Source of the DNA: a virus
Taxonomy: Duplodnaviria; Caudoviricetes
Virus record (IMG/VR): IMGVR_UViG_3300044641_005618
Length of the DNA stretch: 64,000 nt
Strand: one strand, 5' to 3'
Shown here: in pieces, positions 1 through 58,197 of the stretch
Layout of the letters: every line of letters begins with the position of its first letter
How positions within the stretch are numbered: the stretch's first letter is position 1
Translations under genes and position numbers: made by a program
The notes under the pieces: generated by a model
What the model saw: only the letters and a program-made list of their open reading frames with translations
Told to the model about the DNA's origin: nothing
Databases searched by the model: none

Positions 1-151
1 TTCGGCAAGTTCCCGCTGTGCCGTAGGCCGTGCCGTTGGGGCGAACACAGCGAGTGAAATCATAGCTTGACCCGTAAAGGGAATCTACAAGTTTTTCTTT
101 CGCCACTTCTTGGTAGTGTTCAAGAGCCGTGTTTGAGAAGTTGCCTTGCAT
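1..151 (-). CDS. 5' part of another modular-family gene (leader + YDFTRC module), running off the window edge
   Basis: Manual translation from ATG 151: MQGNFSNTALEHYQEVAKEKLVDSLYGSSYDFTRCVRPNGTAYGTAGTCR; GGGTAAAT motif 21 nt upstream. An alternative ATG lies at 157. Confidence 0.85.
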   Translation of the reverse strand, partial: MQGNFSNTALEHYQEVAKEKLVDSLYGSSYDFTRCVRPNGTAYGTAGTCR

Positions 152-172
152 GTACATACCGTCCTCTAAGTA

Positions 173-180
173 ATTTACCC
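173..180 (-). promoter_or_regulatory. GGGTAAA late-type promoter motif
   Basis: GGGTAAAT, 21 nt before ATG 151. Confidence 0.7.
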
Positions 181-402
181 GCAATTGCTTCGCAATTCGC
201 TGAGAATGTGGTCTATGCTAGCAGGGTGGAGTAGTTCGGTTGTGGTTGGCGAGGAATAGCGATAGCCATGGGAGCGAGCCCATTTGAGTAGGGACTGTTC
301 AAGGTCGAAGCATTCTCCGAGGGTGGCGTGGTGATTTCTACACTGAACTGTCTCCCGGTGACTATTTAACACCAGGTTTTCCAAAAAAGACGTAGTAGTC
401 AA
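175..402 (-). CDS. hypothetical protein
   Basis: 75-aa ORF on the coding strand with a TTG start; no recognisable motif. Confidence 0.35.
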   Translation of the reverse strand: MTTTSFLENLVLNSHRETVQCRNHHATLGECFDLEQSLLKWARSHGYRYSSPTTTELLHPASIDHILSELRSNCG

Positions 403-966
403 AGAAAGTGTCGCTAAGACTTAGTCTGTCTTCGGAGGAATACTTAATTTTACCAAGGCCCTCTATGCGAAAACCTCTACGTTTGATTCCACTGGATCTC
501 CCACTTTTCGCTGCTTGCCCTGGAGCATAAATTCCTACTCCTCTTTCTTTGATGACTTGATTACCTTTAGCTCCCCCTACCCTTTTTTCCTCCTGCACTC
601 TTCAGTGTTTCCCTTTAAGGCGTTTAGTCTTTGCCGATCTGAACTCCAAAAACCGGTTTTATTTCTCTTACAAACTTCGTGGGTTGCATAGGCGCCCAAC
701 ACAGGAATAACAGAGTCCCCTCCTGCTTTAACCCTTCCTGTCATCATATTCACTGAGGCTAAATCTTTAGTCTCTCCGTAAACTTCCCAACGAATCCTAT
801 GCGCTTTTATGTGGTCTTTGACTAAGCACTCGACTATGTTGTCCTCTTTGTATTCGCCTCCAGCGTGACCCGGTAAAATGCGATGAGTTTGAGATGATAT
901 ACCATGACCTAGAAGTGCTTTCTCTTTTTCTTTGAGATGTAGTATATAAGAAGTGTACTTGTCCAT
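362..966 (-). CDS. free-standing HNH-like homing endonuclease, apparently split by a frameshift near 577-598
   Basis: ORF 577..966 has an HNH-like pattern (THRILPGHAGG..N.V...H..AH); ORF 362..598 continues the same K-x-x-G-x-G repeat style (KRNKTGFW / KERGVGIY); the two overlap by 22 nt across an A6 run. Confidence 0.55.
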
Positions 967-1023
967 AGAAAATCCTCCACGCTTGTTATAGCGCAGAGGA
1001 CAGTGCAGTAAAGATTGCTAAAA

Positions 1024-3044
1024 TTAGCCTACACTTGGTGCGGTCAAAGCAACTGGCGTTGCAGCGACAGAGGCCAAATCAAGGGGAAAATTATGGGCAT
1101 TCATTACCCGGTAGGGTAACCGCTGTTTCCAACGGGATCGGACTATATCATCAAATTGCTTTTGCAATTTGTCGGGCGCTAATCTGGTTTTACGTAGCAC
1201 GCTTGTTACACCCAGTAGTCTCTGAACCTTCCTTAGAAGCGTCTAAGGCTTGGCTGCTGATTGGCCCTTGGGCTTTCCAGCAATTCACCCGATTTAAAGA
1301 GCGCAATGCCTAGTTTCACGCTCGTGCATAACTTCTAAGCCTAAATTTGCTTTATTAAGCAAATCTGCCCAAGTGTTAACCACACGACCCTGGCTATCTT
1401 GAATGGACTGGTTAAAATTGAAACCATTTAAGTTAAATCCTGCGACAAAGATACCGCAAGCAGCAAACCAGATTCCAATCACAGGGAGTGCTGCCATAAC
1501 AAAGTGCAGAGAGCGACTATTGTTGAAAGAAGCGTATTGGAACAAGAGGCGTCCCAGATACCCGTGAGCGGACACCAGATTGTAGGTTTCTTGGTTTTGC
1601 CCAAATTTGTAACCGTAGTTCTGACTTTCATTCTCAGTGGTTTCTCTTACCAAAGATGAGGTTACAAGAGAGCCATGTGTGGCACTGATTAAAGCACCTC
1701 CGAACACACCGGCAACTCCAATCATGTGGAAGGGAGACATTAGTATGTTATGCTCCGCAGAAAAAACCAACATGAAATTGAACTGGCCGGAGATTCCCAG
1801 AGGGAATCCGTCAGAGAATGATCCTTGGCTGATGGGGTAAGCCAGGAAAATTGCGGTTGCCGCTGCTACGGGGGCAGAGTAAGCCACGCAAATCCAGGGT
1901 CTTTGGCCGAGGCGATAAGAAAGTTCCCACTCACGCCCCATGTAGCAAAAGATGCCAATAAGGAAGTGGAAAACGATAAGTTGGTAAGGGCCACCATTGT
2001 AGCAGGGTGGCGTCCGCTAGTTCCCTAACGGCGTGGACTATATTATCGTTTTGCTTCGCAAAACAAAACGTCGGGAGCTCTAGCCTGTCATTAAGAAACA
2101 CTGTAGTTTCTCAGGTAGTCTCTGAACGTTCCTCCGGTGTACCGAAGGCTTCGCTGCTGATTGCCCGTTTTGCAGAAGCAAAACTAGGGTTCCCAGTCAA
2201 TTCACCCGATTTAGGGTGGCCCTACAGGCTGAGCCACTCATCAAGGGAAGCAGCTTCCCAGATTGGATAGAACACCTACCCGTAAGTTTCCTTACGGAGC
2301 TGACTATATCATCAACTTGTAAACAAGTCGTCGGGCGCTAGCGGTGTATTACATCCCACGCTTGGGAAACCACCTAGTCGATGAACGTTTCCTAGAAGAT
2401 CGTCTAGGACTTCGCTGCTGATTGCCCGTTTTGCTAAGCAAAACTAGGGTTCCCAGTCAATTCACCCGATTTGCTTACGGCCTCACGGCAGTAAGGCACT
2501 CCTTTACGAATGCAATCCAATCGCATTAGAACTTGGTACTACGGCACCACTGATGCTTTCTCTGTGAGAAAGTGGACTATATCTTCATCTTTGTTTTTGC
2601 AAAGAGCTGGGCGCTCTGTTTACTTCTTTTCGATGTAAAGCCTGTTATTAAGAAACACTGTAGTTTCTCAGGTAGTCTCTGAACGTTCCTCCGGTGTACC
2701 GAAGGCTTCGCTGCTGATTGTCTTAGTATCCCAACTTTGGAGTTGAATACTCAAGGTATCCCAGCAATTCACCCAGTTTACTTCTGCGAATCACTTCGCA
2801 GTGACACCATCTAGATGTTGTTGCCGTACATAAGCGAACCAGCAACTGGCTCACGAATTCCGTCGATATCGACAGGAGGTGCTGCGACGAACGCAACGAT
2901 GAAGCAAATAGTTGCAGCTAGCAACGTGGGGATCATGATTGTACCGAAATTTCCGATATATAACCGGTTGTCGGTACTCGTGACCCAACTAAGGTAACGC
3001 TCCCAAAGATTACTCTGAGGACGTTGTAAAACTGAACTAGCCAT
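1024..3044 (-). CDS. psbA: photosystem II D1 protein, 5 exons (3044-2815, 2555-2510, 2272-2232, 2002-1318, 1101-1024), 359 aa
   Basis: Exons sum to 1080 nt and restore canonical D1 across each junction: YGNNI|[15 protein letters not shown]|[14 protein letters not shown]|YNGGPYQL...VMHER|[10 protein letters not shown]. Confidence 0.97.
1102..1317 (-). mobile_element. group I intron 4 of psbA (216 nt, ORF-less), between codons R334 and N335
   Basis: 5' exon ends in U (CGU), intron ends in G; conserved elements AAAUCGGGUGAAUUGCUGGAA, AAUCAGCAG, GUUCAGAGACUA and GAUAUAGUC. Confidence 0.93.
2003..2231 (-). mobile_element. group I intron 3 of psbA (229 nt, ORF-less), within codon L106
   Basis: P1 pairing of exon GUGGCU with intron GGCCAC places a U.G pair at the splice site; terminal G; core elements present. 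Confidence 0.92.
2273..2509 (-). mobile_element. group I intron 2 of psbA (237 nt, ORF-less), after codon H92 (nt 276)
   Basis: Exon ends CAU, intron ends G before UUC UAU CCA; core elements present. Confidence 0.92.
2556..2814 (-). mobile_element. group I intron 1 of psbA (259 nt, ORF-less), within codon I77
   Basis: Exon ends AU, intron ends G before C AUC AGU GGU; core elements present. Confidence 0.92.
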
Positions 3045-3240
3045 TTAGCATGATTAAGTAAGTGATCTTAGGGAAAGATCTGTTACAAAACCCTCACTAC
3101 CCTAAGGTGAGGCAGGATGAGAGACAGATTGACTTGCCTAGTCCCGGTAGCGGCAAGGCGGTTGAAAGAATCAACCGCGACACAGGTAGTATAGGGTGCT
3201 TAGCGATCGGTAAACGTTGGTTCCAAAACTTTGCTGGAGG

Positions 3241-3379
3241 AAAACTTTACTGCTGTACCGTCCGGTCTCACACGCCGTGTAAAGACATACTCACCACCTT
3301 CAGTAAAGTTTACAGACTAAGTATGAGTTGCAAGCTGAGCAAACTGCTCAAGTACGGTTTCGGAAAAAGACCCTTGCAG
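3241..3379 (-). pseudogene. decayed copy of the leader + YDFTRC cassette
   Basis: Reads (L)QGSFSETVLEQFAQLATHT*SVNFTEGGEYVFTRRVRPDGTAVK: CTG in place of ATG, in-frame TAG at 3319-3317, D>V and C>R in the module. Confidence 0.75.
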
Positions 3380-3472
3380 GGGTAATTTGTTTCTATACCC
3401 GCTTATACCACCTTCTCTAAGTCTGGTACGCACCCCTCAGAATCTCCTCCCAGGTTAAGTGCCAAGGCTCAT

Positions 3473-4630
3473 TCAGGTAGTGGAGTTAAAGGTCCTATGA
3501 GTCGTATAAGGGGTAGCTTTCAGAGACTCTTCGAAGAATCCGGGTTTGTTTGTCTTAAGCCCTGCCCCAAAAATAACCGTATGCCAAAGGGATATCTCTC
3601 TAGAGCTTTCTTTAAACATGTAAGTTTGATCCAGACTCGCCTCGGAAGAGGTGGAGGGGACCATTTTCCCGTTACTTTTCTTGGCATACTGGTTCATCCC
3701 TGGCGGTCCATCAATTTCTTCCCCGTCCTTCGTCGTTTTTGGTCTGGAAAATCCCATCTTAACATAAGCGTCCATTCTACTCTGACCCCTACCGTCTTCC
3801 GTCCAAGCTTTCGTCGTCACTACGGCGCCCTCTGGAAGAGACTTAACAAGAGCTTCGTACGTACGACGGACGGTGTTTGCCACTTCAATTTGCTCCCCTC
3901 TCTGCGTTACTGTACCCGCGTCATACTTTCCGTTAACCTTAAAGTCGAAGTGTTTTCGCCCAAACTCCGTCTTCACACGATGTCCTGACTTTGTTGTGAC
4001 TTCAGTGACGATGCTCGCAAAGGGGGAAGAAACGAAGACTTTGGTTCCCGCCGGAACGTTGTCCACCATACCGCTTAGGATTTTTTCGTTAGTCTTAAAT
4101 TTGTTTAGTTCCTTGTTGAGCCTTTCCAGCTCAAAGTCTAGGTATTCGTCAGGTTTGGGGTGCTTCTTCTTATACTCATTTAGTTCTTTTATCTTCTCCT
4201 CTATACTCTTCCTGGGCAAACCCCCTGTTAGCTTAGTGGTATCACCTACCAACTCACCTCCGATTTTGGGCTTAGTTGGTTCCTTTGGCTTGGGAGGTAT
4301 CTCTGAACCTTTCTTCTCGTCAATTAGCTTCTGAATCTTGGCGGCCTGGTGAGGCTTTACTCTCGGATCACCTGGAAGCTTTTCCAGGTCCCCGACGGAA
4401 GGGCTCTTAACCGTCTTCCCAACGCGCATTTCTCGAACCCTCGGTGGGACTTCACCCTTGGCCTCTTCCGTACCCTTCCTACACTGCCCCGCCGTCCCAT
4501 ACACAGTACCGTCCGGTTTCACACAGCGTGTAAAGTCATAGGTTTCCCCCTCAGCAAAATCCGCACCTTGCAGTTTAATCACAAGATTCCTGTAGGAATC
4601 TAGCGCAATTTCTGAGAAGTAACCACCCAT
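3473..4630 (-). CDS. modular-family protein: leader + YDFTRC + DPR module + GNAT-like C-terminal domain
   Basis: Start revised to ATG 4630 (MGGYFSEIALDSY); DFAEGETYDFTRCVKPDG; C-terminal GRGQSRMDAYVKMGFS resembles the GNAT R/N-x4-5-Y-x-K-x-G-F motif. Confidence 0.7.
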   Translation of the reverse strand: MGGYFSEIALDSYRNLVIKLQGADFAEGETYDFTRCVKPDGTVYGTAGQCRKGTEEAKGEVPPRVREMRVGKTVKSPSVGDLEKLPGDPRVKPHQAAKIQKLIDEKKGSEIPPKPKEPTKPKIGGELVGDTTKLTGGLPRKSIEEKIKELNEYKKKHPKPDEYLDFELERLNKELNKFKTNEKILSGMVDNVPAGTKVFVSSPFASIVTEVTTKSGHRVKTEFGRKHFDFKVNGKYDAGTVTQRGEQIEVANTVRRTYEALVKSLPEGAVVTTKAWTEDGRGQSRMDAYVKMGFSRPKTTKDGEEIDGPPGMNQYAKKSNGKMVPSTSSEASLDQTYMFKESSREISLWHTVIFGAGLKTNKPGFFEESLKATPYTTHRTFNSTT

Positions 4631-4652
4631 CTGTACAGAGTCAAGTACCAAC

Positions 4653-4660
4653 TTTTACCC
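4653..4660 (-). promoter_or_regulatory. GGGTAAA late-type promoter motif
   Basis: GGGTAAAA, 22 nt before ATG 4630. Confidence 0.75.
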
Positions 4661-4667
4661 TACGACC

Positions 4668-6152
4668 TCAGACGGATGAAAGCAGTGTAAGGTGTTTCTT
4701 CGCCCGAGTAACCTGTACATAGCACAGATTGCTTTCCTGAGCAAGCTCCCACGGCTTCTTCGCCCAGCGGCTCGGGCTCAGGCGGTCCATATCCAGTGCA
4801 AACACGCGGTCCCACTCTCGCCCCTTGGCCCGGTGAATGGTAGACAGTGTGAGGACCTTTCTCTGGTTTCCTTCGCTGTCCGAGAAAAGCTCTCGAATGT
4901 TGTTCACAAGAACCTCAATCGAGTCGCCAGGATCGCAGTTTTCAATCAGAACACGAAGCGTCCCCACCTGGTCTTCTACCGTGGAGCACCGGTCGTTGTT
5001 GCCCTTCGCCTGGGCTTTGGTCATTTCGGCACCTTCCCACTGCTCCAGCCTCTCTTCAAGCTGAGCAACCGTGGTAACTTTTTTCCATCGCTTTGCCAGC
5101 TTGATTAGGCCCTCCCCGATGGCCCGCCCTTCAACTCTGCACGCTGTGCCCTCACGCAGCAATTTGTAGGCAAGTTCGATAAGGGGCTTCGTGGTGCGGC
5201 ACAGGATGGCGTCCGACGCCCCAAATTCCCCTTTGCCTATGGCTTTTTTGACGGTCGTGCTATCCACAACTCCCTCTGGAGCACTTTCGTGTGCCTCAAT
5301 GTGGCTGACCCACTCCTGGGCTTTTGAAACAATCTTCTTGGGGCACCGGTAGGTGACAGTGAGTGGAAGCTCTGTGGCTTGAAACTCCGTTGCAATGTTC
5401 TCTAGGGAGGCATGGTCAGCCCCGGTGAATCCGTAGATCGCCTGGTGTTCGTCACCCACGGCGACAAAACGCCCAGTCGGCTTCAGCATTTTCTTCATCA
5501 TTGCTCGACGGACGAAGTTCGCGTCTTGCGCCTCGTCTAGAAAGCACCAGTCGTACTGACGAAATGGAAGGTTCTTCACCAGCGGTCCATAAATCATGTC
5601 GTCAAAGTCCACGACTTTGCCCAGCATGGAGTTGCTTTTGCGCACCAGTTTCACCGTTTCACGAATGGCATCGTCGTAAGAGACGTCTTCAGGGAGCAAG
5701 TCTCCGAGAGAAAAATGGCTTACCATCGCGTCCCAACTGAACGCAGGGTCAATTTGGTAGCCGAGTTGCTTTGCCATTGCCGCTGTGGCGACGCAAAACC
5801 GGCGAATTCCCCAGTTTTCTATCGTGTCCTCCGCAATGTTTCCCAGTTTCTTCCCGTCAACCTTAATGTTTTTATGAGCAGCACGCAGCGCAGCGAAGCC
5901 GAACGAGTGACACGTCCCGGTCCGCACTCGGCTCTGCAGCCCCAAAGGTGCTACACGCTGAGCAATCTCCTCAGAAATTGCCTTGTTGTACGCACAGAAC
6001 GCCACTTCCCCTTCTGTCTCGGGGAGCATTTCCACCAGCAGGGTGGTCTTTCCAGACCCCGCTACTGACCTTACGATGAGGTTACCGGATCCGGTTCGAA
6101 CCCAACCCTTGGCGGCTTGCTGCTGAGGGGACAGGGAGAGAGTGGTTTTCAT
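4668..6152 (-). CDS. UvrD/Rep-like superfamily 1 helicase
   Basis: AGSGKT, DEAQD, VGDEHQAIYGFTGA, TYRCP, STIHRAKGREW and YVQVTRAK motifs. Confidence 0.93.
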   Translation of the reverse strand: MKTTLSLSPQQQAAKGWVRTGSGNLIVRSVAGSGKTTLLVEMLPETEGEVAFCAYNKAISEEIAQRVAPLGLQSRVRTGTCHSFGFAALRAAHKNIKVDGKKLGNIAEDTIENWGIRRFCVATAAMAKQLGYQIDPAFSWDAMVSHFSLGDLLPEDVSYDDAIRETVKLVRKSNSMLGKVVDFDDMIYGPLVKNLPFRQYDWCFLDEAQDANFVRRAMMKKMLKPTGRFVAVGDEHQAIYGFTGADHASLENIATEFQATELPLTVTYRCPKKIVSKAQEWVSHIEAHESAPEGVVDSTTVKKAIGKGEFGASDAILCRTTKPLIELAYKLLREGTACRVEGRAIGEGLIKLAKRWKKVTTVAQLEERLEQWEGAEMTKAQAKGNNDRCSTVEDQVGTLRVLIENCDPGDSIEVLVNNIRELFSDSEGNQRKVLTLSTIHRAKGREWDRVFALDMDRLSPSRWAKKPWELAQESNLCYVQVTRAKKHLTLLSSV

Positions 6153-6293: not shown

Positions 6294-6461
6294 TCAGCGA
6301 GCTTGGTTGAGCAATCTCTGTCCGAACTCTCGTAGGTCTTGATTTCTTTCCAAATTGCCAATCATCATCGCCATTCTCCCCACTTCAGCACTCCCATCCG
6401 TTTTTAGAGCGTCCTGGACCAGGGGGTCGGCCATGAATTTTTTGATTGAGTCTTTGTTCAT
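6294..6461 (-). CDS. 55-aa ORF translationally coupled to the 758-aa modular protein (candidate immunity/partner)
   Basis: Manual translation MNKDSIKKFMADPLVQDALKTDGSAEVGRMAMMIGNLERNQDLREFGQRLLNQAR; ATGA overlap with the upstream stop. Confidence 0.7.
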   Translation of the reverse strand: MNKDSIKKFMADPLVQDALKTDGSAEVGRMAMMIGNLERNQDLREFGQRLLNQAR

Positions 6462-8734
6462 AGGAATAGTTCTCCGGCGACATCAAGATTAGGGAAAGAC
6501 TTGCACGCTGCATCCAGCAGCTTGTTGAATCCGGGTGTTTTCTCCATTTCCCTGTACTTTCTTATAAATTTGTCCCAGTTGGCTCGCTCGTATCCATCTT
6601 CTTCTGTAAAGAAGTATTTTGTACGGTACTTTACTTTGATATTGTTCCTCTTGTCTAAGACCTGAATGTCCCGTGAAACGTATCTTTTTAGATCTCTGTC
6701 AGTTAACTCGGGGCTATCCCCACGACCCTTAAGGGAAGCTGAACGGTGGAGCAGGTTGACTAAAACTTCTTCCGCAGGTGAGGGACTAAACGAGCCAATA
6801 CCAAACCACTCTCCAATTTTTTCCGGGCCACCGAGAAAACTGTGTAGTAAAACGTGGACTCGGTCGTGCTCCCAGTCGACTGAGCCCGGATACGCAGTTA
6901 GGCCAGCTTTTTTCCTCCATTCCTCCGCAGCGGCTTCCACAGCGACGAAGTCCAAGTTGTTCCCCCCTTCAAACAACCTTTTCGGTGCTTTACTTGTTTT
7001 GGGTCGAGGTTTTTTCTTGTCTGCCGCCTGCTCTACCCCTTTGCGACACTTTCCTTTCGTGCCGTACGCAGTGCCATCGGGCCTCACACAACGTGTAAAG
7101 TCATAGCGTTCCTCTTCGGAGAAGCACTCATCGTTTAGCTCAGAGGTGAGCTGTGAGTAGGCAACTAGTGAACTTTCGGAGAATGTTCCGTTCATTTTGC
7201 TCTTGGCGAGGGCTGGGGCAACAGGGTCTTTTGAGGTCGTTTTGCTCTTAGGGGGTGGTTCCCATGAGTGGTCCTTCATGAGCTGATTATACCGTCTTTG
7301 AGCCTCTAACATCCTTGTAATTTCCTCGCGGTTGAGCGCACCCTCCTTGTCGAGTGCCGTTTGCAGTTCAGCCCTGGCTTTTTTCGTCGCCAGGGTGCCC
7401 CCGTAATTCGCCCGCACACGCTCGGTAATGTTCGCGTTAAGAACCATTGCGTTACCCAATTCCTGCCCTCTCAGTTCTCTCTTCGGTGCAAGTTCCTGGC
7501 GCCTTTGACCTTCTTTCGCCGCTCCCCTGGCGGGAGAGGAGTCCCCGACCATCGTGTCTTTCTTCGCCCCTCCAGGGTTCCGATCGTCCATTGCATCGTT
7601 AACACGTCGCATCCGTATTTGGGCCAGTCGATTTCTGTTAGCGTACACAACTCGCCCTGCTCGCCCTTCTGCGTTGGATAACCTGCTCCCCAAAGGTGCC
7701 TGAAGCGCACCACGGTCTCTAAGGTAGTCTTGTGCTTTAGCGCCTATCTGTTCGCCCCTTTTGAACATAGCTTCAGTTCTTCTTGCCATTGCAACTGAGT
7801 GTGGTAATGTACCCCCCTTGGAAGTTGCCGCTTGAGGTCCCTTTAACCCCTCCCCCTGCTTCTCCTTCAACAACTTATTCAGCTGCCCCCTTTGCCTATC
7901 ATTCAGTCTCGGGTCACTCAGAACTTTCTTAAGGTCCTCAGCCCCCAAAGCCTTAATCTTCTCAGTAACCCGCATTCCACCCGGCTTCGCCCCCCTCTTC
8001 TTCTTGTCCGACACCATCTCCTTGCTTGGAGTGGGGTCCGCAGCCTGAGAAATTCGGGCCTTGCTCGGAAACTTTGTGACCCCGCTCGGAGTCAGGTTCT
8101 CTGGTACAAGGGGAACCATCACACCGGTCTCAATTCTCCCTTTGTCCAGGGAGTCCCGAATTTGCATCTTCGTCTGATTGAGCTTTTTATAGGCACTACT
8201 CAACTTTTCAATCTTATCCTGTGTGGTTTTCCTTAGGTCATCAAACTTCGGTGAGTCTGACATGCGCTTCAGCAACCCCTCCTGGCGGCTTAGCTTCTCT
8301 CCCACCTCTTTCATTTTCTCGTTAATTACAGCCCAGTGCTCACCGGTTAGAGCCGCTTTGACTTTGCCCTTTGCACCCACCGTTTGAGTCCGCCCAGAGC
8401 TTTCTACAATCTTCGACCCTTTCGGGAGCATTCCCGCAAGTTGGCTTATTGCATCGTTCTCTCCCTTGTCCTCTTGGACCCCCTTGCGGCAGGTCCCCCC
8501 GGTGCCGTATGCAGTGCCATTGGGGCGGACGCAGCGGGTGTAGTCGTAGTTCTCAATGTATTCTCCGCGAGCCTCACCGGATTTTGCAACAAATTGCTGC
8601 TCTCCACGACTCCTAGCCCCTTCAGAGAAATCTTGAAGTCCCCCTACACTTGAGATGGCGGACGCTTCGTAGCCTGCATCCCGCATCATCGCGAGAAACT
8701 TTTCGGCGGAGTCAGGGGTGAAGGAGCCTTGCAT
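6458..8734 (-). CDS. modular-family protein with two leader + YDFTRC units, a DPR module and a C-terminal HDxxH domain
   Basis: MQGSFTPDS...YDYTRC at the N-terminus; internal MNGTFSESSLVAY (ATG 7195)...CFSEEERYDFTRC; C-terminal WEHDRVHVLLH...AEE. Confidence 0.8.
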   Translation of the reverse strand: MQGSFTPDSAEKFLAMMRDAGYEASAISSVGGLQDFSEGARSRGEQQFVAKSGEARGEYIENYDYTRCVRPNGTAYGTGGTCRKGVQEDKGENDAISQLAGMLPKGSKIVESSGRTQTVGAKGKVKAALTGEHWAVINEKMKEVGEKLSRQEGLLKRMSDSPKFDDLRKTTQDKIEKLSSAYKKLNQTKMQIRDSLDKGRIETGVMVPLVPENLTPSGVTKFPSKARISQAADPTPSKEMVSDKKKRGAKPGGMRVTEKIKALGAEDLKKVLSDPRLNDRQRGQLNKLLKEKQGEGLKGPQAATSKGGTLPHSVAMARRTEAMFKRGEQIGAKAQDYLRDRGALQAPLGSRLSNAEGRAGRVVYANRNRLAQIRMRRVNDAMDDRNPGGAKKDTMVGDSSPARGAAKEGQRRQELAPKRELRGQELGNAMVLNANITERVRANYGGTLATKKARAELQTALDKEGALNREEITRMLEAQRRYNQLMKDHSWEPPPKSKTTSKDPVAPALAKSKMNGTFSESSLVAYSQLTSELNDECFSEEERYDFTRCVRPDGTAYGTKGKCRKGVEQAADKKKPRPKTSKAPKRLFEGGNNLDFVAVEAAAEEWRKKAGLTAYPGSVDWEHDRVHVLLHSFLGGPEKIGEWFGIGSFSPSPAEEVLVNLLHRSASLKGRGDSPELTDRDLKRYVSRDIQVLDKRNNIKVKYRTKYFFTEEDGYERANWDKFIRKYREMEKTPGFNKLLDAACKSFPNLDVAGELFL

Positions 8735-8753: not shown

Positions 8754-9041
8754 TTATTTTACCCTGTTTGCTTCGCAGGCGTAAAGGGGTGGTTTACCCC
8801 TCACCTTGATCCCCCCCCCCCCTCCGCAACCACTCTTAATCTCCTCGGACCGCACCCACTCCTTCAACCCAGCAACGTACGCCCTTAGCAACTCAGCTTG
8901 TTGCAAGTTCTGGGGGCACCCCGTTCTAAGATGCAAGGACATGTGTCGGTCTATTGCATCTAGGCAGGTTTTGATAACAGGGTTCCACGGTTCCCTGACC
9001 TCGGTGTTGTATGTTCTTTTTGTCTCGTCAAAGTTTTCCAT
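8754..9041 (-). CDS. hypothetical protein with a G12 tract near the 3' end
   Basis: 95-aa ORF; REPWNPVIKTCLDAIDRH segment resembles small cyanophage hypothetical proteins. Confidence 0.6.
   Translation of the reverse strand: MENFDETKRTYNTEVREPWNPVIKTCLDAIDRHMSLHLRTGCPQNLQQAELLRAYVAGLKEWVRSEEIKSGCGGGGGIKVRGKPPLYACEANRVK
8757..8764 (-). promoter_or_regulatory. GGGTAAA late-type promoter motif
   Basis: GGGTAAAA, 22 nt before ATG 8734. Confidence 0.75.
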
Positions 9042-9218: not shown

Positions 9219-9935
9219 TCAAACAACTTGGAGTGTGCGATTGTAGTACATTTTGCGGTCTTCAAGACCGTTGTAGCCGCCGTTAACTCTCCTGGTAACC
9301 TGCTCCACCGAGGGGTTCTTATCACAAAGCTGATTCATCTTGTTGTTTTGCCACCAAAATCCTGCCGAGCTAAAGGGATAATTATCGGCAACATAGTCAA
9401 CACCCTTCATCACAGCAGGATCTTTGATGAAGTCGGCAAAATCTTGGTAGTTGGCTCGTCCAGTCAGTTGAATGTAGCCGGCTCCCTTGAAGCGAGGCCC
9501 GTCTCCTGGCTGGGTATTGCCGAGATCAGCCCTGTCCTCATAGTCCCAGCCGGAGGCGAGCTCCTTTTTGTAACGTCCGCCCCCTGATTCATGGGCGGTC
9601 TGGCTGAGGAAATGGCGGAGCCTGGGCTTTGTGGTTACGCCAAAACGTTGCAGGCATTCGTTGAGCTCGGTCACTTCCTCGTCCTTGATCATCCCTGGTC
9701 CGCAGATCCAAATGCTTGCCAGTTGCTGTTTGGTGATCAAAGCCGCACCAGAGGCCCGGTCGAGACCAGGGGAATCTGGAGAGGTGCGGAATTGGATGAC
9801 CCAGGGGGCAGTGTCATCCATGAGGGCTGGATCTACCTTGGCGGCAAAGGCCTTCATCGCTTCCACATGATTGCGATTATCCTTACGAAAGTAGGTGATG
9901 AAGTCGAGGAATTTTTCTGGTGTAATTCTGGCCAT
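9219..9935 (-). CDS. glycoside hydrolase family 19 (chitinase-like) endolysin
   Basis: [52 protein letters not shown]; start revised to ATG 9935. Confidence 0.9.
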
Positions 9936-10133
9936 GATCGGGGAAATTAATGACAAAAAGACTTCAATCAGAATTCAAAACCGGAATCAAGCTGATGACA
10001 AGCCATTGAGAAGGTTTCTTCACGCCAACGGCTGGACCCGGGATGGTTCAAACCTCCGCCTGCTAGAACTCAAGAAACTTGAAGCTTGGTTTGCGGCGAG
10101 CCTTTCGATGCCGGAGCCCCAGTTGGCAAGTGG

Positions 10134-11153
10134 TTAGAGGCCGCTCTTGAGTCCGGTGGGCTTGCCCTTGACGCTGGTGACGATCCGACCATCACCGCTA
10201 CCAGGACCCCGATCCCAGAAGATGCGATCAAAGGTGTCGTAGCTGTATTCGTCGTAGGCACCGCCGATGCCGATGTCGTAGCTATCGGAAGCACCATGGC
10301 GGGTGCCAAAGGGATCGTGGACAAGCCAAAGCTTGCGTTCGAGATCGTGCCCAACCAACAACACAATATGGCCACCACTCTTATACTTAACGCCGATCAC
10401 CACTGGAATATCCTTGCTCAAAGAGAGTAGGAGATCATCGGCTGAAATGCTCTGCTGGGTGTAATAAGATTCGATGCCTAGATCCTTGAGGGCCTTGGTC
10501 TGGCAATTGTGATCTATGGTGTCACCGTAGGGGGCAAGCAGCTTCTGGTAAGCCGATTCCGGTTCCTTTAGACCCTGGCTAGTAGCGGAGCGGCTGAGCT
10601 CGCCATTGAGGAGAAAATCAGCCAACATCGTGCAAGAGGTAAGATTGCACTGGCGGTATCCGTTACCAAAGGTGGGATGCCAGTCGTTATCCGTTTGGCC
10701 AAGATATTTGACAGGAAGCTTGATCGCCTGCGGCTGACCCTCAAGCTCGACATGGGGCTGATAGGCATACACCGTATCCAGTTTGGTTTTGCCATCGCTA
10801 GCCAGGATGGGGGTGACAAGCTGGAGCTTGACGTGTTGAAAACGGTCGGGGGTGATAGCGCTGACCGGCAGCCGGGTGCCCGCCTGGACCAAAGTCTTTT
10901 CAGAGGGTTCCAGATCTTGGGAACCGACTGGATGATTTTTAAAAATGGTAGTGATACGGGCGGTTACAGGTTGTGTGGGCGGAGTGTAGGGCGTGCGGTA
11001 TTTTCGCACCCATTTTGCTTCGTCGGTGAGCAGCTCGGGTTGCTTCGCAAAAACTTGCTTAGCAAAGTCGAGGAAAGCAGCTTCTTGGTTGGGGTTATCG
11101 CTTCTACGGTGTCGAACGAAATCGAGAAACTTTTCCGGTGTGAATTGTGGCAT
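10134..11153 (-). CDS. C39-like cysteine peptidase (putative cell-wall hydrolase) sharing an N-terminal module with the GH19 lysin
   Basis: YRQCNLTSCTM (Cys), GGHIVLLVGHD (His), WLVHDPFG (Asp). Confidence 0.8.
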   Translation of the reverse strand: MPQFTPEKFLDFVRHRRSDNPNQEAAFLDFAKQVFAKQPELLTDEAKWVRKYRTPYTPPTQPVTARITTIFKNHPVGSQDLEPSEKTLVQAGTRLPVSAITPDRFQHVKLQLVTPILASDGKTKLDTVYAYQPHVELEGQPQAIKLPVKYLGQTDNDWHPTFGNGYRQCNLTSCTMLADFLLNGELSRSATSQGLKEPESAYQKLLAPYGDTIDHNCQTKALKDLGIESYYTQQSISADDLLLSLSKDIPVVIGVKYKSGGHIVLLVGHDLERKLWLVHDPFGTRHGASDSYDIGIGGAYDEYSYDTFDRIFWDRGPGSGDGRIVTSVKGKPTGLKSGL

Positions 11154-11246: not shown

Positions 11247-11411
11247 CTATGTCTCAGTAGTATCCGTCTTGTACCTGTTAATGCCCCTGATGAAGGAGTC
11301 CATGTTGGTTGCTTTCTCGGCATCTTCGATGAACTTGCGCCTATCCTCGAAAAGGACCGGTTGAATAAGAACAGCGAGAATGCGGCTGATTGTGGGGTCG
11401 TTGATGTTCAT
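11247..11411 (-). CDS. 54-aa ORF translationally coupled to the ART-like protein (candidate immunity/partner)
   Basis: Manual translation MNINDPTISRILAVLIQPVLFEDRRKFIEDAEKATNMDSFIRGINRYKTDTTET; ATGA overlap. Confidence 0.7.
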   Translation of the reverse strand: MNINDPTISRILAVLIQPVLFEDRRKFIEDAEKATNMDSFIRGINRYKTDTTET

Positions 11412-12787
11412 TCGTTTTCGTCGGGGATTTGTGAGTCCATGGCGGCAATGATTGCTCCACGGTTAAGGAGAACCAAATAGTCTTTCCCAAGTGAGGGGAA
11501 AGTGAAGGCGTGGATTCCCACTGCCGCTGCAGCTTCCCCCAAGTCCTTGAAGCGGTACCCGGTCTTATTCTGAGCTTCGTTCAGGGTTATTTCCCTCCAC
11601 CCCATGAGCTGTTCCATTCCCTCTTGCGCTGTTTTACCACTGAATTGTACTATATTTGCGTCTTTTCTAAGTGCAAAAGCCGTAACTTTTGAAGAAAGAT
11701 TATTCCTATCCCCTGCATACTCTTTTGCTGTCTTAATGGCTTTACGGGTAGACGCTTCGCTCGGGTCGTGGTAGGAAGGTGCTGCGGCGTAGGACCCATT
11801 GCCGAATATTCCTTTACCAGGGTAGTGACTACCCCCCTCGCTCCCCAACCCCTTAAATTGATCCGCGAATTTCTCGTCCCCAACACCACGATAGAAGATT
11901 AGAGGTGACCCGTCCGAGTTTGTTACAATGTCCTTTCGTTTTCGTAAATCGTCAACCGTTGCAACAAGTTCGGGCTTGGCGTTGAATCCCTGCTTCTCGT
12001 AAAGGGACTTTAAACTTGGCGACCACGGTAATTCTGTTTCACCGGAATCTTTCGGGACTCGTTTAGGAATCGGGGAGCTACTTCCCGGAGTCTTGTCATA
12101 CTTAGGGGAATTCTTTAGATCCGCTTCGTACGTCTTCGGGTCTCTGCCTGGCTTCTTCCTTTCCTTCAGCTCTCTTTCCTTCTGATAAATCAACAGTCGA
12201 AGATTAATCAATCGAGCCTTATTTGCAACCGTGTCCAACTCCGGCGACTTGACCAGGGTTTGCATCATCCTGTAACTTCTTTTTATTTCCGCCACTGCTT
12301 TGGGGCCTGACCCAACCCAATCGTATTCATCCTGCACCTTAGGGTTGTTTTCTGAGACTGCTTTCCTCAGCTCTTCCCTGCTGGTTTTCCTATCTGGCCC
12401 GCTACCCTTCTTGGACATCTGGCCCTCAGGAGCTTTCACTCCCCCTTTGCTCTTGAGCAAACCTTCTAAAACTGCCCTTTGCTTTGGGGTTACGCGAGGG
12501 TCCTGGAGAACCTTCTTAAGGTCTTCAGCTCCCAACCCTTTTATTTTTTCGGTGAGCCTCATTCCCCCTGCCTTAGGGCCACGCTTTCCTTTTACTTGAC
12601 TCTCCTCTTTCGCCCCAATTTCTGTACCCTGCTTACACTTTCCTCGGCTACCGTATATAGTACCGTCCTTCCTCACACAACGTGTAAAGTCGTACGTTTC
12701 CCCCTCGGAGAAGTTCAAAGGGTGCGTCTCGGCGACGAGAGCTTCGTACGCTTGGAGAGCTTCAAAAGAAAAAGAACCGTGTGCCAT
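11408..12787 (-). CDS. modular-family protein: leader + YDFTRC + DPR module + ADP-ribosyltransferase-like C-terminal domain
   Basis: Start revised to ATG 12787 (MAHGSFSFEALQAY); LNFSEGETYDFTRC; IFYRG...GKGIFGNGSY...AKEYA...YLVLLNRGAI resembles ART/PARP-fold motifs. Confidence 0.7.
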   Translation of the reverse strand: MAHGSFSFEALQAYEALVAETHPLNFSEGETYDFTRCVRKDGTIYGSRGKCKQGTEIGAKEESQVKGKRGPKAGGMRLTEKIKGLGAEDLKKVLQDPRVTPKQRAVLEGLLKSKGGVKAPEGQMSKKGSGPDRKTSREELRKAVSENNPKVQDEYDWVGSGPKAVAEIKRSYRMMQTLVKSPELDTVANKARLINLRLLIYQKERELKERKKPGRDPKTYEADLKNSPKYDKTPGSSSPIPKRVPKDSGETELPWSPSLKSLYEKQGFNAKPELVATVDDLRKRKDIVTNSDGSPLIFYRGVGDEKFADQFKGLGSEGGSHYPGKGIFGNGSYAAAPSYHDPSEASTRKAIKTAKEYAGDRNNLSSKVTAFALRKDANIVQFSGKTAQEGMEQLMGWREITLNEAQNKTGYRFKDLGEAAAAVGIHAFTFPSLGKDYLVLLNRGAIIAAMDSQIPDENE

Positions 12788-12804
12788 GTTTGTAATAGGT
12801 GAAG

Positions 12805-13341
12805 TTATTCGTTGCAAACCGGCAATGTTGGCTTCCTTTCAGCTTGGCCGCCTTGCCTACCTAAGTCTTGTACTTGTTGCTGAGGCTGCTGGTCGAAAGT
12901 TTGGCCTTGCTGCTGTGCCGCTTGCTGCGCTTGCTGGGTGGCCTGGCGTTGCTCTGTGCTTCGAGGCTGGGGCCTCGGACGGCAGTTTTCCTCATAGCTT
13001 GCCGAGAGTTCCTTGCCCTTTTGCCCCAACTCATCAAACATTGCGAGTCCTTTAAGATCGCTACGCGATCTTGGGCCTTGCTGCGGGTTTCCTTTCGGGA
13101 GAGAAACAGGGAAGATTGACTCTGAACTTTGCTCTTTTTGCTTACCCTCACTTCCTTTTTGTTTCCCCGGACGACTATCAATGTCCATGCCTTGTAAACT
13201 TTGGGCGTGCGTAGTTTTGTTCTCTCTCGGAAGCTTCTCTGTGGTCTTGCCCGTCAAAAACTGCTGTTCCCACGGAGACTCCCCGTATAGCATTTCTTGT
13301 ACTGCAGCTAAAGACTCGGTTGTAAATCCGGGGACGTTCAT
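12805..13341 (-). CDS. Gln-rich protein with a leader-like N-terminus
   Basis: MNVPGFTTESLAAVQEML; QQAQQAAQQQGQ low-complexity tail. Confidence 0.6.
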   Translation of the reverse strand: MNVPGFTTESLAAVQEMLYGESPWEQQFLTGKTTEKLPRENKTTHAQSLQGMDIDSRPGKQKGSEGKQKEQSSESIFPVSLPKGNPQQGPRSRSDLKGLAMFDELGQKGKELSASYEENCRPRPQPRSTEQRQATQQAQQAAQQQGQTFDQQPQQQVQDLGRQGGQAERKPTLPVCNE

Positions 13342-13426
13342 TCTTACTAGTTCTTTTTCGATTGGATCTGAGTGGAGGTTAGCGTTCCGTGCTCCAAGGT
13401 ACTCCCGCTCTTGCGGTGAGTTCTAC

Positions 13427-13993
13427 TCATCGCATTCTTCCACTAACTACTCCACCCTTAATACCCGACTCTACTCTTTTACGGAAAGAGTCTCTCTTTC
13501 TCTCTTCCGGGGTCATAGCCTCACGCTCTTTCGCTTCCTTGGTCCCAGCCTCGCTTCTACCCTCAAGTTTAAGCCTTTCTGCCATAGCCTTCTTTATGGC
13601 TAAGGCGTGGCCCTCTTTCACATCGGTTTCATCGTTGTCTATGGCTTTAATCACCGCCTTATGAATTGCCCCCAAGTGCTTCACTGACTCTGCCTTTGCG
13701 TAAATCTTGTTAAAGGTCTCGTCCGCGTCACTATTCCAGCTTATATTTCGTTTAGCGTCCTCTCTCGCTAGCTCCAGTTGTTCCGGCGTCATTGGGCCGA
13801 ACCCATGGCTTTTTGTTATGGCCACCTCTATTCCCTTGCGGCATTGTCCCGCCGTCCCATATGCGCTACCATCAGGTTTTACACATCGAGTGTAGTCGTA
13901 CGATTCTCCCTCAGAGAAGTTCTGGGGGTATCTTTGAGAAACAAGTGCTTCGTAAGCTGAGAGGGCTTCACAGGAAAAGGAACCGTTTGCCAT
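13427..13993 (-). CDS. short modular-family protein (leader + YDYTRC + basic helical tail)
   Basis: MANGSFSCEALSAY...QNFSEGESYDYTRCVKPDGSAYGTAGQCRKG. Confidence 0.85.
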   Translation of the reverse strand: MANGSFSCEALSAYEALVSQRYPQNFSEGESYDYTRCVKPDGSAYGTAGQCRKGIEVAITKSHGFGPMTPEQLELAREDAKRNISWNSDADETFNKIYAKAESVKHLGAIHKAVIKAIDNDETDVKEGHALAIKKAMAERLKLEGRSEAGTKEAKEREAMTPEERKRDSFRKRVESGIKGGVVSGRMR

Positions 13994-14014
13994 GGGGGGT
14001 CTGCTTTAAACTTA

Positions 14015-14022
14015 TTTTACCC
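14015..14022 (-). promoter_or_regulatory. GGGTAAA late-type promoter motif
   Basis: GGGTAAAA, 21 nt before ATG 13993. Confidence 0.75.
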
Positions 14023-14057
14023 CACTTCCTTTCAACAAGGCCAATAGCCGTCCAACC

Positions 14058-14375
14058 TTACCCCTGGCAAGAACCGTCGGGACGTCCACAAGTTGCGAAA
14101 TCCAAGGCACCGCCAAGCATCGAAGCAACCTCTTGAGCAACCTCTTCGGAATAACCTATAGAAGTTAGCCGCTCTGCATGATCCTTCGACTTACCTGCCA
14201 TTGAAAGTGCTATGGCAATAGCCTGGTCTTGAGACTTAACAACCTTACCTTCTTTCCCTTTCTTTCCTCTCCCAGAGTGCAACGGCTTCGGGTCGCCGTG
14301 CTTCCACCGGTGCATCACTTGCCCCACTTTGTCTTTGTGAGAAGACATCGAGTGGTCGTCAGGAAGCTTCGACAT
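14058..14375 (-). CDS. small basic phage protein (DUF6496-like) ending in a truncated DFxxC module
   Basis: KVGQVMHRWKHG..LHSG..G..VKSQDQAIAIALS; ends LDFATCGRPDGSCQG; start revised to ATG 14375, with a GGGTAGACTT variant motif upstream. Confidence 0.65.
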   Translation of the reverse strand: MSKLPDDHSMSSHKDKVGQVMHRWKHGDPKPLHSGRGKKGKEGKVVKSQDQAIAIALSMAGKSKDHAERLTSIGYSEEVAQEVASMLGGALDFATCGRPDGSCQG

Positions 14376-14467
14376 TTTACGTGAACCGGACTTACATAAG
14401 TCTACCCTGTTTAGGGTAAGGTAACCCTTTCGCAGGAAAGGTGTGGAAAACCGTACCGCCATTGGGG

Positions 14468-14641
14468 CTAGAGGTAAGCCCCGCCTAAGAGCGCATCTTC
14501 ACTCACATCCCCCTTCTCTCGCAGCTTCATTGCAGCTTCAAGGTACGGATTTGCACCTTCACCAAGCTCGCCGCGCCGTTCTTTGTAACGAGACATGAGC
14601 GCGATATACTGCGCGTCGTTTTTTCCTGTGGTCCTTTTCAT
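14468..14641 (-). CDS. kinase-partner small protein A (57 aa)
   Basis: Manual translation MKRTTGKNDAQYIALMSRYKERRGELGEGANPYLEAAMKLREKGDVSEDALLGGAYL; TAATG overlap with the kinase stop. Confidence 0.8.
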   Translation of the reverse strand: MKRTTGKNDAQYIALMSRYKERRGELGEGANPYLEAAMKLREKGDVSEDALLGGAYL

Positions 14642-16206
14642 TAGATCCCCTCGTAGAGTGTGTTGATCACTTCCATCGCTTGCTTGTCGCTTAGCTTAGC
14701 CCAAGGTCCCACCTTATACTTCTCGTCGCGAGTGCTAGTTTTAGTGGTAAGGACTTTAGTCATGTCTTCACCGTCTATTCCAAAACTTCGGAGTTTCTCA
14801 ATGGCCTTTTCTTTGTTTATGTATGCTTTGTAGGCTAGCGGGGCGTCTTCTTCGAGAAATGCCAAGTAGTTTGCTTTTTGTTTCGGTGTGATATTCTTTC
14901 TTTCCACATCTGAAATCATGTTTCCACCTGGACCCCAACTCGAAAAGGTAGAGTCTGCGCTTTTTCCTCTGGGTCCCGGAAAGGCTCCTAGTGCCTCCAC
15001 AAGAGCAGCTTTCGGATTGTCTTGCGCCAGCCCCATATCAACGAATCGCCCTTTACCCTTCTCATCTACCAAAACATTGCCCCCATGCATATCATTGTGT
15101 GCGACCCCCATCCTGTGCAGATCTGCACGAGCCTTCCAATAGGCGTCGGTATTCGCTTTACTGGAATCTCTACTCGGATTCATACCTAGAGGGGTCCCTT
15201 GAACTTTCGACATAGCGATACGACCGTTCCTCAGGTCTACCCCCGTTCCCTTAGGTCCAGTGGGTCCGCCAATATCCGCAGCAATCAGCTTCGGCCCCAG
15301 GTCGGCTTTACCAACTTTATCGACGATAGCCGCCTCTGTACGGCTAACCATACCTCTTTTAACAACTTCGCCGTCCGGACTTAGAATCGCAGTGCCGAAC
15401 ATACCCGACCCCAGCATCTTAGCCTTTTCGCCAAAGGTTCGACTCCAACCATCGTACTTCGGGTCTCCCTGTCTCACATGGTTGCTCTTTTCGATCTTAG
15501 AGTCTATGATCGCGGCTATTTCTTCCTCGTAGGATAAACCATCTGAGTTCACTTTCTTGGAGGCCTCTCTTGGCCCCCGATTCTCCTCAAGAATGCTCTT
15601 GATGTCGTCCAGAACTTCTTTCTTCGTTACTTTTGCTCCGCCGCTCTGACCCCCACCGGGTCCTAACCCTAACCCTGACGCTTTTCGTTGTGACACAGCC
15701 GAAACTTTTTTAGCGATCGCCGGTGAAAGTTGCCGTTCGGCCAGCAGCTTGTTTACTTGCGCTCTCTGTTTGTCGTTCAGCCTCGGGTCATTTAGAACCT
15801 TCTTCAGTTCTTCAACGGGTAGCGCCTTGACTTTGGCTGTCAAACGCATTTTTCCCTGCGTTACGGCCCCCTTTGACGGGTCCGGTACCGCTTTCTTACT
15901 CAACAGCTTCTCTGAGAGTTTTGAGAGTGATGAGTGGAGCTCAGGAGGGAGAGGTTTCCCCGGTAGCGTTGGTTTCACCCCCTTCTTCACCCCTTTGCCT
16001 TCACCTCTTACTTTTTTCCCTGGAGCGTCTTCCTTAACTTGCTCTGTACCCTTCCTACACTGTCCCGCCGTCCCATACACAGTGCCATCTTTCCTCACAC
16101 AACGAGTGAAGTCATACGTTTCCCCCTCAGAAAAGTCCGAGGGGTGCTGTTCGGCGATCAGTGTTTTGTACGCCTGAAGAGCATCGGACGAGAAGGAACC
16201 TTGCAC
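14641..16206 (-). CDS. modular-family protein: leader + YDFTRC + DPR module + protein kinase domain
   Basis: Start revised to GTG 16206; LGSGMFG glycine loop, VVK, HNDMHGGNV catalytic loop, FVDMG. Confidence 0.88.
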   Translation of the reverse strand: MQGSFSSDALQAYKTLIAEQHPSDFSEGETYDFTRCVRKDGTVYGTAGQCRKGTEQVKEDAPGKKVRGEGKGVKKGVKPTLPGKPLPPELHSSLSKLSEKLLSKKAVPDPSKGAVTQGKMRLTAKVKALPVEELKKVLNDPRLNDKQRAQVNKLLAERQLSPAIAKKVSAVSQRKASGLGLGPGGGQSGGAKVTKKEVLDDIKSILEENRGPREASKKVNSDGLSYEEEIAAIIDSKIEKSNHVRQGDPKYDGWSRTFGEKAKMLGSGMFGTAILSPDGEVVKRGMVSRTEAAIVDKVGKADLGPKLIAADIGGPTGPKGTGVDLRNGRIAMSKVQGTPLGMNPSRDSSKANTDAYWKARADLHRMGVAHNDMHGGNVLVDEKGKGRFVDMGLAQDNPKAALVEALGAFPGPRGKSADSTFSSWGPGGNMISDVERKNITPKQKANYLAFLEEDAPLAYKAYINKEKAIEKLRSFGIDGEDMTKVLTTKTSTRDEKYKVGPWAKLSDKQAMEVINTLYEGI

Positions 16207-58193: not shown

Positions 58194-58197
58194 TGTC

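Follow-up and report, generated by a model that had tools for sequence, protein, structure and literature searches.

A modular tag shared by variable proteins of S-CBWM1-like cyanophages: a candidate label for loading cargo into the capsid

The 64,000-nucleotide stretch of IMG/VR record IMGVR_UViG_3300044641_005618, a virus of the Caudoviricetes (hereafter, the window), encodes a family of proteins that share a conserved sequence of ~55 residues, the tag, mostly at their N-termini and followed by highly variable C-terminal regions. We see about an even chance that the tag is a label for loading cargo into the capsid of cyanophages resembling Synechococcus phage S-CBWM1, including a jumbo relative of ~277 kb. 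Encapsidation is supported by three independent, indirect lines of evidence, namely, a motif shared with the head maturation protease, a promoter-like box shared with structural genes, and a kinase paralogue carrying a module of gp174, a protein annotated as 'virion structural protein'. The presence of the linker motif of the tag in the head maturation protease makes capsid loading its most likely role.

The tag consists of three separable parts: an amphipathic leader helix (M-x-G-x-F-S-E-E-A-L-x-x-[YF]), a linker motif ([DN]-F-[SA]-E-G-E-T) and a small beta-hairpin with two Cys residues (Y-D-F-T-R-C-x13-C-R-K-G; hereafter, the module). The full consensus reads MxGxFSEEALxxYxxLxAxxxxxDFSEGETYDFTRCVRPDGSAYGTxGKCRKGTE; its C, G, G and C residues are invariant, and a further set (M, G, F, L, F, E, Y, F, T, R, R, Y, G and T) is conserved in more than 90% of the sequences. 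The mean column identity is 57% in the tags versus ~5% in the rest of the proteins. The AlphaFold2 prediction, based on 134 sequences, comprises a helix (residues 8-21) and three short strands (35-38, 44-47 and 55-57), with both Cys on the hairpin (mean predicted local distance difference test score, pLDDT, 71.5). That the parts are separable is evident from leader-only proteins starting at 58193, 58572 and 61493, and from a short-leader subtype lacking the linker motif, represented by the window kinase 56954-57841 and S-CBWM1 gp39. Downstream of the tag lies a K/A/P/E-rich linker, in some proteins a second module of ~40 residues, and then the variable C-terminus.

A profile (A1) built from nine window tags was scored against 1.84 billion representative proteins, clustered at 50% identity, and matched 906 metagenomic protein clusters at E<=1e-3 and 457 at E<=1e-10, nearly always within residues 1-60. 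Among the 150 best representatives of these matches, to which all representative statistics below refer, the match begins at residue 1-6 in nearly all cases, the exceptions being DUF6496 fusions and double-tag proteins. The module starts at residue 28-39 in 129 of the 150, F-[SAT]-E is placed exactly seven residues ahead of the D of DFTRC in 114, and 18 carry two copies of the module. In some relatives, the module follows a DUF6496 domain and hence is not always N-terminal. IMG/VR contains at least 64 tag loci, with up to five on one contig. The near-identical metagenomic relative of the window, IMGVR_UViG_3300044625_001067 (G002; 277 kb, 98% complete), has 14 tag matches, and S-CBWM1 has two (gp165 and gp39); the latter was the only isolated phage in which tblastn matched the tag, and megablast of the region against isolated phages gave no match. 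Pattern scanning of 185,579 prokaryote species, each represented by one genome, detected no relative of the tag. The initial annotation did not recognize the tag as a described family, and this holds across the databases: no Pfam, PHROG or NCBIfam model covers it, a PDB sequence profile search returned no match, and Foldseek with the AlphaFold2 model of the tag found no match of known function in PDB and AFDB clusters and matched only the two S-CBWM1 tagged proteins in BFVD. The source names of the tagged proteins are all 'hypothetical protein', and no description of the tag emerged from the literature, searched for the motif as well as for virion data on S-CBWM1. The tag family is large, strongly conserved, restricted to phages and devoid of annotation.

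The linker motif recurs in a protein of the head gene block. LEFSEGET is found in the C-terminal part of S-CBWM1 gp170, annotated as a 'peptidase'. The strict form [DEN]F[SA]EG[DE]T is expected 0.0025 times in the six-frame open reading frames (ORFs) of S-CBWM1 (158,918 aa) and occurs once, in gp170; in the window, it is confined to tags. The G002 orthologue of gp170 (L074:1471-4047) is a head maturation protease (phrog_976, E = 1.7e-64; PF10123, Mu-like_Pro) composed of a protease domain, a long acidic middle part and a conserved scaffold-like C-terminal domain, which across five phages reads CEGLEFGTL[DEN]F[AS]EGET. The motif [DEN]F[SA]EGET is retained in 47 of the 49 protease homologues, 67-74 residues from the C-terminal end, and many of the homologues also have F[SA]EE[GED] right behind the protease domain; no F-x-E-type motif is present in the G002 portal protein. 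The shared motif could be a common cleavage site, given its hydrophobic-small-Glu pattern as in T4 gp21, or a common docking epitope, and either reading would tie the tag to prohead maturation. As a separate observation, the protease of G002 and its 49 homologues contain a very long, highly acidic, repeat-like insertion before the scaffold-like C-terminus and range from 627 to 1131 aa.

The second line of evidence is the box GGGTAAAR, which occurs 22 times in the window versus 5.8 expected, with 21 matches on the coding strand. It is located ~20-40 nt upstream of the tagged or leader gene starts at 62952, 61493, 58572, 16206, 13993, 8734 and 4630, and also precedes the baseplate and tail-fibre genes at 54291, 49481 and 42611 (the last as GGGTATAA) as well as the tape-measure-like gene at 33771 (further box coordinates: 33810-33817, 49508-49515 and 54332-54339), often just 3' of a GC-rich hairpin. 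The helicase, ribonucleotide reductase and PhoH genes of the window are not preceded by it. In relatives, the box is found ahead of portal, capsid and neighbouring structural genes, and in S-CBWM1, it is likewise biased towards the coding strand (38 versus 3). GGGTAAAR is likely to be a late-type promoter of this phage group.

Third, kinase 54503-55771 and protein 60198-60878 begin with a different module, C-x-x-G-K-S-C-x3-C-I-x6-C plus about 40 residues (hereafter, the 4-Cys module), which aligns to residues 57-115 of S-CBWM1 gp174 (pairwise E of 1e-6 and 1e-7). The gene of the latter (L073:32376-33962) is situated between those for the protease and the capsid, and its record gives the annotation 'virion structural protein'. 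Given that the tagged kinases and the 4-Cys kinase are paralogues, one kinase family bears either of two N-terminal modules.

These observations would be consistent with the following scenario of packaging, cleavage and injection, drawn from sequence comparison. The tagged proteins would be made late, alongside the virion proteins. The leader and F-[SA]-E-G-E would engage the very procapsid site or enzyme by which the Mu-like head maturation protease/scaffold, bearing the same motif near its C-terminal end, is handled, and the tagged cargo would thereby be enclosed in the prohead. The linker motif may be a protease cleavage site, in which case the leader would be removed like the T4 capsid-targeting sequence. 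The basic cargo would remain with the packaged DNA and enter the host together with it, and the kinases, ADP-ribosyltransferase (ART)-like enzymes and other cargo would act early in the host. In its broadest form, to which we give somewhat less than even credence, the proposal is that the tag is an undescribed, general cargo-loading address of widespread large freshwater and estuarine cyanophages: the leader and F-[SA]-E-G-E-T would copy a procapsid-entry or cleavage element of the protease/scaffold, the Cys hairpin would hold the cargo on DNA or core, and a dozen or more proteins (kinases, ADP-ribosyltransferases, NAD-pathway enzymes and histone-like basic proteins) would be co-injected, with the cargo set swapped freely between phages.

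A six-frame search of the window for D[FYW][TA][RT]C yielded ten matches, every one on the minus (coding) strand. Nine are intact D[FY]TRC-x13-C modules, with the D codon at 61, 4537, 7102, 8545, 12691, 13897, 16113, 57772 and 62757, where the initial annotation had placed them; the tenth is a truncated variant (ALDFATCGRPDGSCQG followed by a stop) at 14058-14102. Two variants and one decayed pseudogene are present besides the intact modules, and the annotation had already pointed to all three, listing variants at about 14070 and at 56675-56733 and a decayed copy: the first is truncated, the second reads DFAAC, and the pseudogene has acquired a stop and lost a Cys. Nearly all window modules directly follow the leader M-x-G-x-F-S-x-x-A-L at the first residues of the protein. 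A loose leader pattern matched 13 times versus 0.87 in shuffles, a count with some circularity, given that these same sequences had supplied the pattern. Eleven of these matches, in which the leader reads M-x-G-x-F-[ST]-x-x-[AS]-[LY], lie on the coding strand within a few residues of a start Met, including the leader-only proteins at 58193, 58572 and 61493, which agrees with the earlier placement of the leader at protein starts; the match that had been called weaker, at 13341, is so. The tagged and related genes, all on the minus strand, are as follows.

2-151, minus strand: 5' portion of a tagged gene that is truncated at the window start, with leader MQGNFSNTALEHY... and module YDFTRCVRPNGTAYGTAGTCR; full-length orthologues (loci L040 and L044) are of 571-616 aa.
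~3250-3385, minus strand: decayed tag pseudogene reading LQGSFSETVLEQFAQLATHT*SVNFTEGGEYVFTRRVRPDGTAV, with an in-frame stop and a Cys replaced by Arg.
3473-4630 (ORF also 3473-4651), minus strand: tagged protein of 385 aa from the leader Met, with leader, DFAEGET, module and second shared module; preceded by box GGGTAAAA at 4653-4660.
6458-8734, minus strand: two-tag protein of 758 aa, with an N-terminal tag, in which a 24-residue insert separates DFSEG from YDYTRC, and an internal tag from 7195; box at 8757-8764. It looks like a fusion of two tagged genes, which are separate ORFs in locus L028.
11408-12787 (also 11408-12817), minus strand: tagged protein with the second module and a weakly ADP-ribosyltransferase-like C-terminal domain.
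12805-13341, minus strand: 178-aa protein with a weak leader-like N-terminus only (MNVPGFTTESLAAV; leader hidden Markov model, HMM, E = 4, not significant).
13427-13993, minus strand: 188-aa tagged protein with a basic helical tail, the reference tag copy; box at 14015-14022.
14058-14462, minus strand: DUF6496 protein ending inside a truncated module (ALDFATCGRPDGSCQG-stop); it looks truncated because its relatives (locus L022; P0010, P0017 and P0047) run on into a full module and further sequence.
14641-16206 (also 14641-16230), minus strand: tagged Bud32/RIO-like protein kinase with the second module; GTG start at 16206, box at 16231-16238.
54503-55771, minus strand: third kinase paralogue, untagged, with the N-terminal 4-Cys module CTKGKSCGGTCISREAKC.
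56287-56808, minus strand: 173-aa protein with the variant module DWDFAACESDEKMVYGVCRKVGG (DFAAC-x10-CRK).
56954-57841, minus strand: kinase with a short leader and module (HDFTRCERLDGTHYGTAGRCRKG) and without the F-S-E-G-E linker, the subtype of S-CBWM1 gp39.
57852-58572, minus strand: two leader-only proteins starting at 58193 and 58572 (MWGSFDNSSYASF, MSHWGSFSPEAYSAY; leader HMM E of 0.015 and 0.047); box at 58597-58604.
60891-61493, minus strand: very acidic 200-aa protein with a leader-like N-terminus (MSNRINGDFDTDSIEAF); box at 61517-61524.
62359-62952, minus strand: protein of 197 aa whose module, at residue 66, is preceded by a different N-terminal extension that contains SFSEN; box at 62991-62998.

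The module cores within the window are 71% identical at the protein level and 66% at the DNA level, and the codons used for identical residues are synonymously different in 57% of cases. Low DNA identity and saturated synonymous change, combined with strong amino acid conservation, indicate that selection acts on the protein; the window copies are old paralogues under protein-level selection. Neither chance nor gene conversion is accepted as a cause of the conservation, given the same DNA identity and saturated synonymous sites. These values also bear on a very improbable explanation, under which the conserved N-terminus would serve mainly as a recombination handle, or as a shared translation or expression leader, for swaps of C-terminal cassettes, with no targeting function. 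In polymorphic toxin loci, conserved 5' parts do serve cassette exchange, and shuffled C-termini, two-tag ORF fusions and decayed copies occur here as well. Such a role is contradicted by the divergence of the DNA and the lack of long identical DNA tracts, and the defined helix and three-stranded hairpin predicted by AlphaFold2 also speak against it.

The initial annotation described the C-termini as unrelated to one another. They are indeed interchangeable, and C-terminal domain shuffling is real in the homologues; after tag masking, the window proteins have only three elements in common, namely, a second module found in four proteins, a kinase domain found in three (14641, 54503 and 56954) and the 4-Cys N-terminus (54503 and 60198). 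The second module, of ~40-75 residues, follows the tag in 3473-4651, 6458-8734, 11408-12817 and 14641-16230, reads MR[LV]TEKIKALGAEDLKKVLxDPR[LV]xxKQRxxLxxLL, is not in Pfam and is possibly a helix-hairpin DNA-binding motif. The Bud32/RIO-like kinases 14641-16206, 56954-57841 and 54503-55771 matched Pfam, PHROG and NCBIfam profiles below the curated cut-offs in every case; the catalytic loop HNDxHxGN (HxDxxxxN) and the DFG-type VD[FM]G motif are present, and tblastn matched annotated cyanophage Ser/Thr kinases, bearing out the two kinases proposed earlier. S-CBWM1 carries the same kinase family without the tag. Its tagged gp39 is a nucleotidyltransferase resembling nicotinamide mononucleotide adenylyltransferase (NMNAT), with the hairpin directly on the catalytic domain, a metabolic enzyme rather than an obvious 'effector'.

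The ART-like domain that the initial annotation had proposed gained weak support from structure and from a PHROG match and none from Pfam. The C-terminus of 11408-12817 is a member of a conserved family whose motifs are YRGV, GNGSYAA and GEDYWVxLNRG (YRGV...GNGSYAA...GKDYLVLLNRG in the window copy); YRGV and GNGSY are invariant, and an acidic GxD/GED precedes LNRG. This C-terminus matched positions 1120-1319 of phrog_16619, a 'minor head protein' (E = 2.8e-17); there was no ART match in Pfam, and PDB sequence searches and Foldseek of the C-terminal model were negative. The AlphaFold2 model (pLDDT 70) matched 13 PDB chains at Z>=2, of which at least nine are ADP-ribosylating toxins, with Z at most 3.3; one of the weak matches (Z <=3.3) is a cyanophage A4 pre-ejectosome protein. 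The domain is thus weakly indicated as ART-like, unproven. The matches to the 'minor head protein' and to the pre-ejectosome protein, as packaged analogues, are in keeping with capsid loading. For the C-terminus of 3473-4651, there is a weak GNAT lead, a sub-threshold acetyltransferase-like match in ESM Atlas, and a match to the capsid decoration protein PhiKZ_gp244 (E = 3.8e-4, below the cut-off); for 6458-8734, ESM Atlas gave a sub-threshold endonuclease/Ntox-like match (score <0.8), and for 13427-13993, nothing useful. The 'GNAT-like' (3473-4651) and 'HDxxH' (6458-8734) assignments are leads only.

The idea of a shared leader and module fused to enzymatic domains held for the shared tag but needs correction: the module is not always N-terminal, and most members are not enzymes. 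Among 56 non-redundant proteins from the window and the IMG/VR loci, Pfam domains comprised protein kinase (5), ADPrib_exo_Tox (3), ART (3) and cytidylyltransferase-like CTP_transf_like (2), plus DUF6496 and DUF3626; among the 150 representatives, ADPrib_exo_Tox (7), ART (6), DUF6496 (3) and kinase (3), plus nucleotidyltransferase and DUF3626. A Pfam domain is lacking in approximately 85% of the representatives. The sequence downstream of the tag has a median isoelectric point of 9.7, exceeding 9 in 81% of the representatives, and is rich in K (13.4%) and A (11.9%). Most members of the family are short, very basic, K/A-rich proteins, a cargo character that favours capsid loading by analogy with the basic internal proteins of T4-like phages. 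This composition, the PhiKZ_gp244 match of 3473-4651 and the motif common to the scaffold part of the protease would also suit resident virion parts, that is, scaffold-like, DNA-condensing head or decoration proteins which are not injected, with the enzymes being minority add-ons. We regard this as rather unlikely: it is not obvious what kinase, ART, nucleotidyltransferase and DUF3626 domains would do inside the particle, and the highly variable content among related phages, together with the pseudogenes, argues against essential structural parts.

Several findings weigh against capsid loading. The leader-only HMM gave no significant match to the protease in the head regions of S-CBWM1 and G002; therefore, only the seven-residue motif is shared, and a resemblance of the whole leader to the gp170 C-terminus was dropped on this ground. 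A T4 gp21-type protease (PF03420) was not found in G002 or S-CBWM1, in a search for which the control was silent too and which is therefore uninformative. Tagged genes lie mostly outside the head gene cluster: the window copies neighbour psbA, helicase, lysis-type and tail-fibre genes, and gp165 of S-CBWM1, directly upstream of the sheath-portal-protease-capsid block, is the sole tagged gene near the head block, although its own position there speaks for a link to the head. Genes without an evident structural function, including the C39-like peptidase at 11153 and several unknown ORFs, are also preceded by the GGGTAAAR box, which would mark a time class at best. The cargo includes oddities such as the NMNAT-like enzyme. 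Some members bear the module internally, or without the leader or motif, and therefore a strictly N-terminal signal is not the whole story. Finally, capsid loading leaves the role of the Cys hairpin unexplained.

Some of these facts would fit a tag that docks late-made basic proteins on a phage or host structure within the cell, be it the phage DNA or nucleoid, a compartment for replication or assembly, membranes or thylakoids, or a complex of the host, with no packaging involved. Strongly basic K/A-rich tails suit nucleic acid binding, four window proteins have the second helical module behind the tag, the metabolic gp39 bears the hairpin directly on its catalytic domain, and most tagged genes are outside the head module. 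When the tag (A6) was modelled in complex with the major capsid protein (A5) of the relative G005, the score reached 0.26, short of the 0.32 mark; this could be listed on the same side but is itself uninformative, neither for nor against capsid loading. Docking elsewhere in the cell appears unlikely to us, albeit well worth considering, as it leaves unexplained the seven-residue motif otherwise unique to, and conserved in, the head maturation protease/scaffold, the kinase paralogue with the N-terminal module of an annotated 'virion structural protein', and the box common to tagged and structural genes.

The window as a whole is cyanophage-like. Its genes of interest are all on the minus strand, and its content includes a split psbA, ribonucleotide reductase, thyX, primase and Pol-type exonuclease genes, tail-fibre and baseplate genes and a tape-measure-like gene; the closest isolate is S-CBWM1 (Aokuangvirus, 139 kb), which infects the cultured Synechococcus CBW1002. 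The psbA gene (1294-3044, minus strand) consists of at least two coding pieces, and the stretch between them holds an ORF; psbA of S-CBWM1 contains two group I introns and a homing endonuclease. In G002, the major capsid gene (loci L080 and L081), ~16.5 kb past the window end, aligns to the S-CBWM1 capsid protein as three separate pieces, and that of the relatives G004 and G005 is uninterrupted. A GH19-like lysozyme (9219-9956, minus strand) and a Peptidase_C39_2-like protein (10134-11153, minus strand) have a common N-terminal domain (TPEKFLDF...), which may be a shared cell-wall-binding or virion-attachment domain.

If capsid loading by the tag is correct, the injected 'first-strike' protein set of abundant, little-studied cyanophages would become readable from sequence, across more than 900 protein clusters; cargo loading of the T4 type would have evolved outside the T4-like phages, in conjunction with a Mu-like protease; and a portable tag would be at hand for packaging foreign proteins into these capsids. 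Because the head protease bears the motif too, the idea is open to direct testing in the isolate S-CBWM1. Should packaging prove wrong, the tag family would still include kinases and ART-like enzymes that are likely to act on the cyanobacterial host.

One of the closest known systems is that of phage T4, in which propeptides known as capsid-targeting sequences (CTS) bring unrelated proteins, many of them basic, to the core before being cleaved off, and in which the propeptides of gp21 itself may act as CTS-like signals; T4-like phages also have basic internal proteins with CTS-like sequences (PMC9026906). The CTS of IPI-III and Alt resembles the tag in being a short N-terminal address found on mostly basic proteins that are otherwise unrelated. 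Alt, one of the T4 cargo proteins, is an ADP-ribosyltransferase, and related phages swap the cargo set. At its end, the T4 signal has a hydrophobic-x-Glu site at which the prohead protease cuts; here, F-[SA]-E comes after the leader helix and recurs in the head protease. However, the CTS comprises 10-19 residues compared to ~55 in the tag, with no sequence likeness, the tag has an extra invariant two-Cys hairpin, and the head protease is Mu-like (PF10123, phrog_976) rather than gp21-like (Peptidase_S77) as in T4.

In the MuF polymorphic toxins of temperate phages, a head-associated N-terminus is joined to variable toxin domains, and delivery with the phage DNA has been proposed (Jamet et al., 2017; PMC5576092). 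The tagged proteins are alike in combining a constant N-terminus with variable C-terminal parts (kinase, ART, nucleotidyltransferase, DUF3626, DUF6496 and unknown tails), and the PHROG whose C-terminal region is similar to the ART-like domain of 11408-12817 is annotated as a 'minor head protein'. Nevertheless, Pfam scans of the 56 and 150 tagged proteins and of the window proteins detected no MuF domain (Phage_Mu_F / SPP1 gp7). Whereas MuF toxin genes belong to the packaging/head module of temperate phages, the tagged genes do not; there are up to 14 paralogues per genome, in phages with no noted integrase or lysogeny gene, and the cargo consists mostly of short basic proteins.

The C-terminal tail of the HK97 maturation protease and the cargo-loading peptides of encapsulins direct proteins inside an HK97-fold shell. 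A peptide common to the maturation protease and the cargo is the logic suggested by the tag-protease motif, although these signals are C-terminal or family-specific and share no sequence likeness with the tag. Accessory protein sets built into the head as it forms and released into the host are also represented by the Dar anti-restriction proteins of phage P1 and the pre-ejectosome proteins of podophages (PMC12810830, PMC12002296); no sequence or domain relation to the tag was found, and no common short tag across many paralogues is known in those systems. The tag is thus a member of neither the T4 CTS nor the MuF family but would work like them.

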